A DNA stretch of 64,000 nucleotides, from assembly GCA_951406725.2 (NCBI GenBank), contig OX597829.1, positions 25,854,001-25,918,000 on the forward strand, in the 5' to 3' direction. Numbering within the stretch: position 1 is the stretch's first letter; the number at the start of each line of letters is the position of its first letter. The notes beneath the pieces were generated by a model that saw only the letters and a list, made by a program, of their open reading frames with translations, ran no database searches and was not told the DNA's origin. The DNA comes from Octopus vulgaris. Its lineage: Eukaryota. Both the position numbers and the translations under genes were made by a program. Shown here one piece after another: positions 14,416 to 62,693 of the stretch.

Positions 14416-15265
14416 ACGACAGGCTTCTTTCAGTTTCCGTCTACCAAATCCACTCACAAAGGCTTTGGTTGGCCCAAGGCTATAGTAGAAGACACTTGCC
14501 CAAGATTCTACGTAGTGGGACTGAACTCGGAACCATGTGGTGGGGAAGTAAGCTTCTTACCACACAGCCATGCCTGCACCTGTGTATGTGTGTGCATGTG
14601 TGTTTGTGTCTGTGTTGGTCCAACCATCACCTCTTGACAACCGGTGTTGCTGTGATTACGTCCCGTAACTTAGCACTTCGACTAAAGTCACCGATAGAAT
14701 AAGTACTAGGTTAAAAAAAAAAAAGAAAAGGTAAGTCCTGTGTTAGATTTCTTCGACTAAAAGCCTTTCAAGGTGGTGCTCCGGCATGACCGCAGTTAAA
14801 TGTCTGAAACAAGTGAAAGAATGGAACAAAAAACATATTACTCTTTTACTCTTTTCTCTTTTAGTTGTTTCAGTCATTTAACTGCGGCCATGCTGGAGCA
14901 CCGCCTTTAGTAGAGCAAATCGACCCCGGGACTTATTCTTTGTAAACCCAGTACTTATTCTATCGGTCTCTTTTGCCGAACCGCTAAGTGACGGGGACGT
15001 AAACACACCAGCATCGGTTGTCAAGCAATGCTAGGGGGGACAAACACAGACACACAAACACACACGCACACAAACACACACGCACACATATATATATATA
15101 TATACATATATACGACGGGCTTCTTTCAGTTTCCGTCTACCAAATCTACTCACAAGGCTTTGGTCGGCCCGAGGCTATAGTAGAAGGCACTTGCCCAAGG
15201 TGCCACGCAGAGGGACTGAACCCGGAACCATGTGGTTGGTAATCAAGCTACTTACCACACAGCCA
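13848..15265. mobile_element. Cluster of four SINE family A copies or fragments (mostly minus strand)
   Basis: Repeated GTTTCAGTCATTTGACTGCGGCCATGCTGGAGCAC segments at ~13860, ~14116 and ~14867, plus a plus-strand tail at ~14620-14820. Confidence 0.85.
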
Positions 15266-18961: not shown

Positions 18962-19048
<87 letters not shown>

Positions 19049-19049
19049 G

Positions 19050-19112
<63 letters not shown>

Positions 19113-19252
19113 ACCATAAGAGAGTGGTCACTATATGGCTCACTCTAGCACCAGTTAATCCAAATATGTTTCAACCACAAAAATACATGTTTTTGAAAGT
19201 CAGTACGATTGTTAGCTCACACGGACAGGGCAAATAAAAAATAACAAAAATA

Positions 19253-19348
19253 CAGATTATTTTGGGACAATTGTTTCGCTATTAATGAATTAAATGTAAT
19301 TTTACTTACAAAAAAATCCACTTGTAGCTCGTCAGCCAAAACTATCTG
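19253..19348 (-). ncRNA. Consensus type I hammerhead ribozyme
   Basis: Minus: CAGATAGTTTTGG-CTGACGA-GCTA..(loop)..TAGC-GAAAC-AATT-GTC-CCAAAATAATCTG. All core nucleotides present; stem I ~12/13 pairs; GUC cleavage triplet. Confidence 0.85.
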
Positions 19349-19588
19349 GATGAAATCCACTCAATCACACGCCAGATTTTACCATAACGATAAATACGCG
19401 TGTGGTTCAATTGATTACATCCGACGTTATAATTCAAATGCCCCAACTAACAGCGCGCCAAACTTTCACGGGAAACAAATACTCATTTAGAAATAAATGC
19501 AGCATAATTATAATTAATTAATAAGGGTGAGAGAATTAGATACTAATTTAATAGTATATCTATTCAACACCAAGTGGCCTAGTGCTCC

Positions 19589-19706
<118 letters not shown>

Positions 19707-21080: not shown

Positions 21081-23047
21081 CTATACCATACTATATACTC
21101 CATTTAAAAGTTGTCATTTTTCATTCGTAAGGCAGAAGTATGATGAAAAAGGACTAATGCAAATTAAATCTCCATTATTTCCTCTGTATTGAATTAAAAT
21201 TTCATACACTTATTTGTAAAAATAAAGGTATTATTAAAAATTAAAACCCCTCAGTGTCTTATAATGACTGAAATAAGTAAAGATTAAAATTAATAGATAA
21301 AAGATCCATCTGATTAGTTTCATCATTTATTTATACCTCATCACAGATTCGTTCCTTATTCCTGACCACAAACACAATAATAACATACGAGGGGGTGCTG
21401 AAAAACTGGCTTTGGGGAAAAGAAAAGTCAATTATACTTTTATTCAACATATTCACCCCGTCAGATTCGCACAGTTATTGAAGTGGTCCATCCTTATATG
21501 GCTTATAGGTTAAATGAGGCATACTTGTCCTCACGGCCGAAACAGCTGTCAGATATGATATAATTATATATTATATTTTATATTTCTATTTCCTTGTCTA
21601 ATTATATTTACAATATATTTTGTATAATGCCTTTGCTGTTATGTAATGGTGTAATAAAGTATTGATTGGGTATTATCTGATGGTTGATGTTTGATTGATT
21701 TAAGTATGTTTCTCCATTTTCTAATTTTGTATATATATATATATATATATAATTAAAAATACACATTAAGTACAGGACACCACCAGCGAGTGAAAAATAC
21801 GTAAACACACGAGAGATAAGTAAGGAACAAATACAAAACAATATTTGAAAAATACACATTAAGTACAGGATACCACCAACGAGTGAAAAATACATAAACA
21901 CACAGAGATAAGTACAGGATAAAGTACCAAAGGAAGTCTAACTCCTCCTCAATCGTGGACTGTTTCTTATTACCTGTTCCGAGCTTTCAACGACAAGACA
22001 GGAAATCTTCATAAGAAATTTTAAAGATATAAAATTTACGGAGAGTGAGGACTTCGAACGAACAAATAACACCAGAGTGGACGTACAGAGTAAACAATCG
22101 ACGAAGACAGATATTATGGGCCGTTGGGCCAAGACGAATTGTATAGGAGAAATTTTGAAAGGATATAGATTATATAGAAGAGAAAAAATTGTAGAAGGCA
22201 AGAAATATCGAGAGACGAGAAAAATTACGTCCAGCTGGTTGGACGTTCCTATATATATATATATATATATAGTCGACACAAACTAGAACAGAACTAAATT
22301 GATCTAACATAATATTGCACCTGTCGGAAACAGTAACTAATTAACAGAAATACTTAGCAACGGTAATAAGAAGAAGAAATGTAAGATAATGGGCGTGTGT
22401 CTGATGAGGCATCAATAAGCATGAAACTGATTCTGTCCATAGAGAGAAAAATCTGTTTCTTTTACCACCGTGTAATATCTTGATGGTGAGGCTAAATAAT
22501 GTTTATCAAAAACACATGCTCGTAAGCTTATCTTTTCAACCTTGTCACCTTCTCTCTTCCTTCTCCTACGCACACACACACACAGAGTTACTCTTAAATT
22601 TATGCTCGTGTGTGTGTGTGTGTGTGTGTGAGTGTGTGTGAGTGAGTGTGTGAGTGAGTGTGTGTGTGTGTGTGTGTGAGTGTGTGAGTGTGTGTGAGTG
22701 TGTGTGAGTGAGTGTGTGAGTGTGTGTGAGTGAGTGTGTGAGTGTGTGTGTGTGTGTGAGTGAGTGTGTGAGTGTGTGTGTGTGTGTGTGAGTGAGTGAG
22801 TGTGTGAGTGTGTGTGTGTGTGTGTGTGAGTGAGTGTTTGTGTGTACTATTTCAGACATTTATCTAGAAATAATATTTCATTCATGACTGGGTGTTATTC
22901 CAGTTTCTAACAATGCGAGTATTCAACTTTCTCTTTTAAACATCGCCGTTTTGCTCTTTTCTTTCCTCTTGCTTCTTCCCTGTCTGTATGTCTGTATGTC
23001 TATCTCCTTTTTTTCCTCTCTTCTCTTTCTCCCTTTGGTTTTCTCTG

Positions 23048-48120: not shown

Positions 48121-48915
48121 TAGTGGGTCATCCCATAAATAATGCGGTTTTTTATGCTTCTTTTATTATTCAAAATTAAGATAAACAAAGTTCTTTTTTA
48201 ATCTAAAATATACTCTCTTTCATTTTCTACAATGCTCTTACATTTATCTGGTAGATGTTCAAGGACCCTCTTCCAAAATTCACTTCCGTCCAAATGATTT
48301 TGAAGACTGCTGAATGAATGATAATCAGATGGGGCAATGTTTGGCGAATCTGGTGGGTAGGGCATCGTTTCCCATTCAAACTGCTGCAGCCTTTGGAATG
48401 TCATCCTCGCTGTATGTGGCCGAGCATTATCCTGATGGAAGAACACCTTTCGTCTTGAAACCGAAGATGGTCGCTTTCCTTCTAGCGCTGACTTGAATGA
48501 CTGGTTAAATGACCAAATCTAAGCTTCTCTGCTAGTTCTTCAACAGTTACGAATTAGATTTTGTTCCACCAGGTTTTGCAGGAATCCTTTGTCAAGCTCT
48601 ACAGATCTTCCAGGACGAGGTTCATCTTCCAGGTTGCAGTTTCTGACTCGGAATTTCTGGTACCACCGTTGACACTGGCTTACGCTTATTGTCCAATCCC
48701 TATATACTGCATTAATATTCTTCGCACTTTCCGTTGCGTTGTTGCTTTTATTGAACTCATAAAGCAAAATATGCCGAATATGCTCCTTTGTCACTTCCAT
48801 TATAGCTTTGAAAAAAAATAATTGTTAAAATCTAACTGCACTCTTCAAAACTTGCACTAAGAACAAAAACAAGGTAAAATTACTACCTGCTTTTATAACA
48901 AGTTGATGCAGGTAA
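48121..48915 (-). pseudogene. Internally deleted mariner element
   Basis: MEVTKEHIRHILLYEFNK...CQRWYQKFR..LEDEPRPGRS (HTH) and FHQDNARPH...PPDSPNIAPSDYH (DDD domain); TIR-like end at ~48121-48152. Confidence 0.92.
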
Positions 48916-53425: not shown

Positions 53426-54092
53426 CTAGTTTAAAAACCACCCTATCGGGGAGCCTTTAAGCTAGTATATAGCTTTTAAGCTACTGACCTCGAATGGAAA
53501 AATCTGCAAACAGATCTTAGACTTGTTTTGGAGAATTTGTTGCAATTGCTTCTTCCAGACTCATATCCCAATAATGATCATATTCATTGCAAACAATCAA
53601 GTAAAAAAATCGCCGAAATTAATCGCTGGATTTCGCAGTTAATTTCGATTATTCCCAAAATTTATTTCCAAATTATAAAAATTGTTATCGTACAAAAAGA
53701 TTCACCGCAAAAAAGTCACGAAAAAAAAAAACTGCCGAAAATAATCACAGTAATGAAAACTCGGGAATCCAAAATTTCAGGATCGCGAGTTCGGGTTTGG
53801 CCAGGTATATTTTTAATTTACTCACAGAGTCGACCTTTAGATTATAAAAATTGTTATCGTACAAAACAATTCATTGCAAAAAGTCATGTAAAAAAATCAC
53901 CGAAAACAATCGCAGTAATGGAAACTTGGGAATTCAAAATTTCAGGATTGCGGGTCCGGATTCAGCCCGGAATGCTTTTAATTTACTCAAGGAGTCGCCT
54001 GATTCCAAAATAATATGGTATGTTGGGCTACGGCCTCTAAGGGTAAAGTTGAAAAAGTGCGACACACTGACATTCGCATTTATTATAATAAA
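53426..54092 (-). mobile_element. Non-autonomous Helitron-like element with 169-bp internal tandem repeat
   Basis: Minus 3' end CCC-CGATA-GGG hairpin then CTAG|T; 5' end A|TTTATTATAATAAATG (TC mutated); repeat units start at 53672 and 53841. Confidence 0.55.
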
Positions 54093-56109: not shown

Positions 56110-56417
56110 CCTCGCTAAGATATTTCAATTAACCTGAAGATTCACTGTAACCATAACTCGAATTATTACGAATTGTACAGCCATGAAACGATCGTAGTGT
56201 TTTACTCTTTATCTTTTATTAAACTTTTAATACTTTTGATATATATTTAAAATAATATAAATTAATTAATTTTATGTATTGGCTAATGTTTTTCATTGTT
56301 TGATTTGCTTAATAGTGGTTTTATCTCTAATTTAATATAATATAATATATTTATACTATAAAATTGGATATAATCCTAAATCTGATTTTTCCCTGTAAGT
56401 TTGGATTTATTCCCTAA

Positions 56418-58341: not shown

Positions 58342-58382
58342 CCAGAGACTAGTTTCAGAGACATTGTTCGTCATCAGTCTGG
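58342..58382 (-). ncRNA. Minimal type I hammerhead ribozyme motif
   Basis: Minus CCAGA-CTGATGA-CGAACAATGTCTCT-GAAAC-TA-GTC-TCTGG: perfect 5-bp stem I, intact core, palindromic ACTAGT stem III; stem II eroded. Confidence 0.75.
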
Positions 58383-61506: not shown

Positions 61507-62693
61507 TCTATATATATAAAACTGTAGTTGTGTGAGTGTCTGTCCCCTTCGATTTAGATTCCTAACTACTCCCACATTTTACGGTGCAGTTTAACCAAAT
61601 TCAGGTATCTTATAGTCGTGATTCATATCGAGCCCGTCTGAGTATTAGCGCGCGTCTACGATGAGTCTACGATTTTAAAAATAATTTAACATCATTTTTT
61701 TATTCCATTTTAATGCATAATTTCTCGTGTGTCGATGGCGGCGGAGTTGGCGTCCACGCTCACAGCTGCACCTGTGTTGCTTTTCCCCTTCTTCCCTCCC
61801 TCGTGAAGCTGTGGGGAAGGGAGTGTAAGGAAATCAACGTCGTAATGCGTTGTCAAGGAGACCAGCGTTCTTTTAGAACAACGACTTCATGGCTTGAAGA
61901 CACCAAAACAGAAATGGCTAAGAAAGCGTCTACATGAGTCTACGATTTAAAAAAAAATTTGCCATCATTTTTTCCATTTTAATGCATTTTTTCGCTATTA
62001 TATAAGGGAAGTAACTCTCTAAAAATGTCTACGATGAGTCAACGATTTAAAAAAAAAATTACCATCATTTTTTATTCCATTTTTAATGCATTTTTTGCTA
62101 TTTTTTTGCTATAACTCTCTAAAAATGCTTATATAGTTATTTCCCTTACAAACCCGAGCAACGCCGGTCGATACTGCTAGTCTTTATATATAAAACTGTA
62201 GTTGTGTGAGTGTCTGTCCCCTTCGATTTAGATTCTTAACTACTCCCACATTTTGCGGTGCAGTTTAACCAAATTCGGGTATCTTATAGTCGTGATTCAT
62301 ATCGAGCCTGTCTGGCTATTAGCGCGCGTCTACGATGAGTCTACGATTTTAAAAATAATTTAACATCATTTTTTATTCCATTTTAATGCATAATTTTTCG
62401 TGTGTCGATGGCGGCGGAGTTGGCATCCATGGTCACACCTGCACCTGTTTGCTTCTCCCCCTTCTTCCCTCCCTCGTGAAGCTGTGGAGAAGGGAGTGTA
62501 AGGAAATCAACGTCGTAAAGCGTTGTCAAGGAGACCAGCGTTCTTTTAGAACAACGACTTCATGGCTTGAAGACACCAAAACAGAAATGGCTAAGAAAGC
62601 CCGAATTGGCATCTATAAGGGAAGTAACTCTCTAAAAATGCTTATATAGTTATTTCCCTTACAAACCCGAGCAACGCCGGGCGATACTGCTAG
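61507..62693 (+). mobile_element. Head-to-tail dimer of a non-autonomous Helitron (61507-62180 and 62181-62693)
   Basis: A|TC start, subterminal CCCG..CGGG hairpin, CTAG|TC internal junction, CTAG|T end, no TSD. Confidence 0.9.

Follow-up and report, generated by a model that had tools for sequence, protein, structure and literature searches.

A window of 64,000 nucleotides from the Octopus vulgaris genome (2.8 Gb, microsatellite-rich) carries on its minus strand, next to a microsatellite, a motif that a preliminary description read as a hammerhead ribozyme. This locus raises the question of what the motif is, which larger element brought it here and by what means, and whether at its present site it could cleave RNA of its own element or of the host.

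A type I hammerhead with an extended stem II

A type I descriptor finds a single full match in the window, a consensus type I hammerhead made up of the following parts:

19253–19348, minus strand: type I hammerhead, predicted to cleave after C17 (19266); identical to 70 of 171 sampled hammerheads of its family
19348–19336 with 19265–19253, minus strand: stem I, 12 pairs, with one G-U and one A-A mismatch
19329–19335, minus strand: core CUGACGA, with N7 = C; can pair with UUGUC (19270–19266) in a predicted inactive fold
19278–19328, minus strand: extended stem II of 51 nt, built from 4 bp, a 2x2 loop, 8 bp, an internal loop and a 5-bp tip
19295–19310, minus strand: tip hairpin of stem II, almost fixed in sister families that are 60–66% identical overall
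19277–19274, minus strand: GAAA
19267–19274, minus strand: stem III AC-AAUU-GU, 2 bp with a palindromic tetraloop (together an 8-nt palindrome), the dimer-type helix III of animal hammerheads
19259, minus strand: U at +7 from the cleavage site, G-U paired beside the A-A mismatch

All parts named in the preliminary description, including the long stem I and the extended stem II, are present, and the cleavage position given there coincides with the one predicted here (19266/19265, with C17 at 19266). The required core (C3 U4 G5 A6 N7 G8 A9 / G12 A13 A14 / A15.1-U16.1 / H17) is complete, the 121-nt fold (z = −3.66) is equalled by none of 200 shuffles, and a descriptor match (stem I at least 7, stem II at least 4) arises in one of 200 shuffled windows. 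Other matches to the pattern CUGANGA..GAAAC, at 843–866, 22401–22427 and 58352–58377 as well as one at 56134–56189, fail the stem descriptor and were rejected. Searched against Rfam, the motif yields no hammerhead match at the gathering score, nor up to E = 10, probably on account of its long stem II; for the giant squid genome, 235 Rfam hammerheads are reported (PMC6962438).

Assessed for a loop 1–loop 2 contact, stem II has a 2x2 loop after its first 4 bp and lacks a terminal loop 2. The U at +7 (19259) is present in 200 of 200 genomic segments of the 535-bp repeat family described below and varies in other families; it may be a candidate for a contact between stems I and II, a role of U+7 in hammerhead loop contacts being described in PMC9217987.

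A truncated copy of a 535-bp non-coding tandem element

The motif lies within an element for which the preliminary description had given about 480 bp between (TA)n and (GATA)n, an outline that the coordinates below confirm:

19108–19588, minus strand: single copy, cut short on its 5' side, of a 535-bp non-coding tandem retroelement; covers unit positions 1 to ~485 and lacks 486–535
19100–19125, minus strand: 3' end "A" of fixed position, at unit ~485 and 161 nt beyond the cleavage site, followed directly by (TA)n
18965–19107: (TA)n microsatellite, the insertion target
19589–19706: (GATA)n array at the truncated 5' junction, outside the family unit

The 481-bp element is 97.7% identical to a unit from an array elsewhere in the genome (L008:1501–2035) and differs from the majority of copies at seven positions, none of them inside the ribozyme. 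It has one arm only, ends at A, breaks off at (GATA)n and holds a single ribozyme. That the motif sits in a mobile element had gone unrecognised in the preliminary description.

Genome-wide, the 28-mer of the ribozyme has 2,060 exact matches, against none for the reversed control. Since the first 100 of these matches fall in 32 loci, some 650 ribozyme-bearing loci are expected, and with exact junctions between unit end and (TA)n numbering 808 for the B end (see below) and 319 for the A end, we estimate the total of insertions at the order of a thousand. On the sequence evidence, the 535-bp repeat is a young element with about 2,000 copies of the ribozyme 28-mer. Its arrays repeat every 535 bp, with a length of 532–535 nt in 78 of 86 monomers, and many sister loci hold 2–13 ribozymes in tandem. 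A natural dimer lies at L032:2396–3465. The unit is non-coding (the longest Met-started frame is 19 aa in sense and 52 aa in antisense), and G or C occupies 159 of 461 counted positions, below the 50% limit for G+C. Folded as a circle on the ribozyme strand, it is 68% paired (z = −9.3, 40 shuffles), at −155.7 kcal/mol vs. −114.6 kcal/mol for the other strand.

In these respects, i.e., tandem type I hammerhead units, absence of coding capacity and a self-paired predicted circle, the family matches the testable criteria for non-LTR retrozymes. The metazoan non-LTR retrozymes described by Cervera and de la Pena (2020, PMC7229834) and by Li, Clavereau and Pollet (2026, 10.64898/2026.07.22.740005) are likewise AT-rich, non-coding tandem units found as dispersed monomers and multimers, with one type I hammerhead per unit and a stem III of 2 bp closed by a tetraloop. 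The unit length of 535 bp exceeds the 150–450 bp given in the former source and falls within the 51–972 bp of the latter. Further differences are a stem II of 51 nt vs. about 4 bp plus loop, and a core that is predicted to be self-blocked here and accessible in most animal retrozyme circles. The retrozyme descriptions available in the same two sources mention neither strict (TA)n targeting nor head-to-head arms, nor a pair of fixed ends. We found no cephalopod retrozyme in the literature, and the supplements of PMC7229834 and of the bioRxiv papers may list such families. Overall, this is likely a non-LTR retrozyme family with the insertion signature of Penelope-like elements (PLEs), and not an autonomous PLE; it adds one family and a stem II link to a known kind of retrozyme, and no new principle.

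Where Li et al. ask of an "active" locus at least two consecutive hammerhead units, the window locus has one ribozyme only. Being a lone 5'-truncated monomer, it cannot release unit-length RNA, and is predicted to be an ordinary dead-end copy among roughly a thousand insertions.

Two fixed 3' ends, one per arm

The insertions of the 535-bp family have ragged 5' ends, and their 3' ends fall at two sites only, A (unit position ~485, +161 nt) and B (position 80 of the next repeat, +291 nt), which lie 130 bp apart and each run into (TA)n. In an unselected sample (the 32 loci behind the first 100 ribozyme matches on C1), 13 loci are two-armed, 17 one-armed (10 ending at A, 7 at B) and 2 complex; all 13 two-armed loci pair one A end with one B end, head to head (binomial p = 1.2e-4). 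The 36 best-hit loci comprise 23 with A+B, none with A+A or B+B, 3 with a non-canonical or cut end, 1 complex locus and 9 one-armed, and among 19 further loci chosen by their B end, 9 have a second arm ending at or near A (judged by eye; one is degenerate). Sister families 60–66% identical have both ends at homologous positions. Units differ by 2.5 within an arm, 5.6 between the arms of a locus and 16.5 between loci, which implies that both arms of a locus derive from one template lineage. No clear shared fold was seen when start sites A and B were examined for a common hairpin.

Penelope insertions are described as 5'-truncated and inverted, with a tail on one end (PMC8557442, PMC3846280), and this tail has been traced to two internal start sites of reverse transcription (PMC11167929). 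By analogy, the A+B pairing with its 130-bp tail is the Penelope "tail" signature. A close parallel is the Poseidon element PAc of Anolis (Frangieh et al. 2024, PMC11167929), whose tail is set by two internal start sites located downstream of the hammerhead, and which, as we propose for the 535-bp family, cuts and extends AT-rich DNA on both strands. PAc differs in being autonomous and in having a small hammerhead and start sites that adjoin each other; its authors found that the strands did not differ in start site in vitro, and a rule of one site per arm is not stated in the available account.

Conservation of the ribozyme and of its stem II across families

Across 14 rows (the 535-bp family and its sisters, which are related, with the structure taken from row 1 and the inner four pairs of the middle stem II helix omitted), 86.5% of cells are paired and 11 of 27 pairs have changed on both sides; the controls stand at 3 of 500 shuffles and, for slid structures, at 34–42% paired. 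Compensatory changes between sister families affect five of the eight counted pairs of stem II, and its tip (helix 3) is 100% paired, with four of five pairs never varying. The stems covary across 16 families as well, in a comparison for which the scan required the first four stem I pairs. The stem III loop is palindromic in 12 of the 16 family representatives, with five different palindromes, one source pattern having constrained the middle bases. A MAFFT alignment of the distant families misaligned stem II and was excluded from these counts.

A pattern search returned 2,905 long-stem-II hammerheads belonging to several families. At least three older sister retrozyme families (L251–L288) are 60–66% identical to the 535-bp family, with units of ~485–530 bp, and share its two ends; in one sister subfamily, many copies carry the core change U4C. 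Further hammerhead families (L109/L114/L155; L174/L058/L199:7771-7876; L199:6537-6616) have end pairs at +193/+296 and +50/+208, and a unit of ~503 bp among them has a stem II base resembling that of the 535-bp family.

Type I hammerheads with a palindromic helix III and a helix II larger than usual have been described from the terminal repeats of PLEs (Cervera and de la Pena 2014, PMC4209133), where, as here, motif pairs lie 100–700 bp apart on opposite strands. Their helix II is of 6–8 bp and their helix I short, vs. a helix I of 12 bp and a three-part helix II rod of 17 bp in the present motif.

Candidate mobilising enzyme

The 535-bp unit lacks an ORF joining reverse transcriptase (RT) to GIY-YIG endonuclease, the mark of an autonomous PLE. 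The octopus genome contains Hydra-type elements that insert in (TA)n, carry hammerheads with a stem II of 51–60 nt and encode a 980-aa ORF with RWK, DKT, CxCx5C, CxxC and CxH, the motifs given for Hydra-clade PLEs in PMC8557442. One short and one long end were found in all nine of their two-armed loci examined. Like the 535-bp family, Hydra-clade PLEs (Craig et al. 2021, PMC8557442) combine (TA)n insertion, a canonical hammerhead, inverted 5'-truncated arms and a tail on one end; they differ in having an RT-endonuclease ORF, and in tail length (130 bp in the 535-bp family vs. 30–40 bp in PMC8557442 and ~97–123 bp in the Hydra elements of this genome). The Hydra elements of this genome also have a long stem II, and the tip stem of the 535-bp family recurs in 7 of 8 Hydra-type hammerheads vs. 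none of 7 others (0.3% by chance, for a motif that was written after the sequences had been seen).

Beyond the ribozyme, we found no homology of the 535-bp unit to the pLTR of the Hydra clade, the similarity to autonomous pLTRs being confined to the 3' half of the ribozyme and the stem II tip match. In 121 PLE-linked loci, similarity to coding elements occurs only around the ribozyme (78% over 50 nt, E 8e-5). No autonomous element sharing the ends of the unit was found in 178 loci (the 121 PLE-linked ones, 20 picked by their ends and 37 of sister families), and the latter two sets contain no contiguous ORF. The A end of Hydra elements lies ~35 nt past the cleavage site vs. 161 nt in the 535-bp family, and the end motifs differ.

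In a rival reading, the class of element is the same, and its mobiliser belongs either to a different Penelope clade that targets (TA)n (Neptune or Naiad) or to an extinct or unsampled Hydra family. Inverted copies and (TA)n ends occur in a young Neptune-type family whose 781-aa ORFs are intact, a (TA)n preference is given for octopus Naiads, and the end motifs of the 535-bp family are closer to those of other non-coding families than to those of the sampled Hydra elements. Against this, the unit has no similarity to 40 GIY-YIG loci, the 781-aa family has no canonical hammerhead at its 3' end by the descriptor, and Naiads lack canonical hammerheads according to PMC8557442, whereas the long stem II with its tip stem is common to the 535-bp family and the Hydra-type hammerheads. 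Considering both sides, we regard a mobiliser from outside the sampled Hydra families as unlikely, though well worth keeping in mind; the 781-aa family itself was ruled out as the autonomous partner, having no similarity to the unit.

We therefore hold with good confidence that the window motif is the hammerhead of a one-armed copy, truncated at its 5' end, of a young 535-bp tandem element that has no coding capacity, is likely a non-LTR retrozyme and was likely copied into (TA)n by a Hydra-clade Penelope RT-endonuclease. In the available literature, mobilisation of animal retrozymes by PLEs has been proposed and not shown; the 535-bp family makes the proposal testable, as its start sites are exact, its ends strictly paired and its stem II hairpin conserved, and as intact ORFs of the candidate enzyme clade are present in the same genome.

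Several coding families were noted in the course of this survey. Loci L191, L193, L194, L195, L196, L198, L205 and L206 represent several Hydra-clade PLE families with frames up to 980–1,091 aa and N-rich inserts; their units are of ~4.6 kb, with long-stem-II hammerheads and tails of ~100–120 bp vs. the 30–40 bp of the literature (PMC8557442). The Neptune-type family (L071–L087) consists of the 781-aa RT-EN frame and an upstream frame, in copies ~98% identical. A 221-aa frame resembling cytidine/dCMP deaminases (L121:3770-4432; PF00383, E 1e-27) lies inside a 6.2-kb duplication, where it is flanked by two Hydra-type 3' ends in direct orientation.

Proposed mechanism of amplification

In the scheme that we propose for the 535-bp family, tandem source arrays would be transcribed on the ribozyme strand, and cleavage by neighbouring hammerheads would release 535-nt monomers, likely best as dimers formed through the palindromic stem III, to be circularised by a host ligase. 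The Penelope enzyme would then nick (TA)n on either strand and begin reverse transcription at two internal sites of the RNA, one per strand, running through one to ~13 units and stopping at random points, after which two cDNAs would join head to head or one alone would survive. The window copy would represent a single cDNA that was begun at site A and aborted after ~485 nt; if read through, it is predicted to be a dead end, with no second cut and at most slow self-cleavage.

A more specific version is that the tip hairpin of stem II serves as a protein handle, recruiting a dimer of the Hydra RT-endonuclease that unlocks the core and then copies a single RNA circle, beginning at two fixed points, one for each DNA strand. 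We consider this version doubtful and put it forward as a speculation; if the handle is real, it would provide a defined parasite–enzyme pair for reconstituting the transposition of an animal retrozyme.

Predicted folding and ribozyme activity

The minimum-energy fold of the motif is not the three-stem fold. It retains stems I and II and blocks the core, G5-A6-C7-G8-A9 pairing with UUGUC at 5.6 kcal/mol below the active fold, and the pairing probabilities are 0.98 for G5-C17 and 0.0001 for A15.1-U16.1. The core is predicted to be blocked in the monomer, the dimer and the circle. A at N7, which 34 of 181 genomic segments have, is predicted to narrow the distance from the active fold from 5.6 to 1.3 kcal/mol. 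Folding programs take no account of tertiary contacts, so that the blocked core is a caution and not a refutation. It is plausible that the window motif is an intact, potentially active ribozyme, as its core is near-invariant in 180–200 aligned segments and the stems covary across families. Its earlier ranking as the best candidate for a still-active ribozyme holds within the window only: the same 96-nt string recurs through the family (the 70 of 171 hammerheads listed above), and copies with N7 = A and those in tandem loci are, on the predicted folds, better candidates for activity than the lone window copy.

The palindromic stem III loop, for which an 8-bp duplex of −6.4 kcal/mol is predicted, fits cleavage as a dimer, as has been proposed for hammerheads with a palindromic helix III in the terminal repeats of PLEs (PMC4209133). 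Published activities of related ribozymes vary: one of nine Xenopus retrozyme dimers was cleaved in vitro (10.64898/2026.07.22.740005), some invertebrate retrozyme hammerheads cleave as single motifs (coral at ~0.8/min, mussel at ~0.1/min), and the monomer of the similar axolotl HHR_Amex2 was cleaved to 22% in 1 h (PMC7229834).

These data also bear on whether a circle is needed at all. The arrays could have come from linear multimeric transcripts or from duplication at the DNA level, the hammerhead being inherited but inactive or dispensable. Homogeneous arrays are compatible with a circular template and with a linear multimer alike, and the blocked core of the predicted fold and the eight Xenopus dimers that stayed uncleaved (10.64898/2026.07.22.740005) would suit an idle ribozyme. 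Moreover, ribozyme mutants left the in vitro insertion by the anole PLE unaffected (PMC11167929), and the sister subfamily with U4C may have spread with a damaged core. Against an idle ribozyme stand families 60–66% identical in which the core, C15.2-G16.2 and the palindromic loop are kept while the stems change in compensation, and unequal crossing over would not be expected to leave fixed 3' ends, ragged 5' ends and dispersed loci. An origin of the arrays without ribozyme and circle thus appears rather improbable to us, and we retain the retrozyme reading given above.

Host context, transcripts and editing

The preliminary description had further suggested that the motif could cut any minus-strand host transcript crossing it. 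The core is intact, any minus-strand transcript across the copy would include the ribozyme, and cleavage by single motifs is known from the coral and mussel retrozyme hammerheads (PMC7229834). This suggestion found no support in our analysis. No host gene was detected in the 148 of 200 complex reading frames of the window that were scanned (a scan that short exons or a non-coding transcript would escape), and the private alleles of the window copy, at 19167, 19165 and 19472, are absent from the contigs of four sequencing runs that cover the element (these come from other samples, with rare variants dropped). In addition, the copy is only ~2% from a young family, with no change of its own in the ribozyme, and consists of a lone motif with a 2-bp stem III, for which the axolotl HHR_Amex2 monomer (PMC7229834) is the similar case. 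A regulatory role of the window copy is possible in principle, yet unsupported, and a host cis-element that cleaves a minus-strand transcript is to us a very improbable reading of it. A tRNA-synthetase match at 15003–15239, lying within a repeat with a microsatellite (E 0.09 vs. PDB), was rejected.

In one of the four runs, a closed head-to-tail contig of 565 nt (534 + 31 nt) is present; it does not mark a circular RNA, because tandem DNA would equally give it. Run X2 (its type being guessed; window 19115–19585) shows 13 plus-strand T>C sites and no A>G site, equivalent to A>G on the ribozyme strand; A13, A14 and A15.1 are among them, at ~8% of depth. At 11 of the 13 sites, G occurs in none of 188–204 genomic segments, the other two being genomic variants. 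In contigs that are few, shallow and without matched DNA, this pattern hints at A-to-I editing of ribozyme-strand RNA, which would inactivate the core. Genomic copies from 86 loci show no enriched editing scars: of the 15 private variants that every unit of a locus has in common, 4 are A>G and 3 T>C. One locus (L224) has three shared A>G. Run X2 also contains loose ends in which T>C changes cluster, a possible sign of A-to-I hyper-editing.

Elsewhere in the window, a Mariner/Mos1 transposase HTH fragment lies at 48543–48824 on the minus strand (PF17906, E 2e-19), and two-copy tandem repeats with units of 165 and 100 bp occupy 53672–53997 and 61928–62127, respectively.
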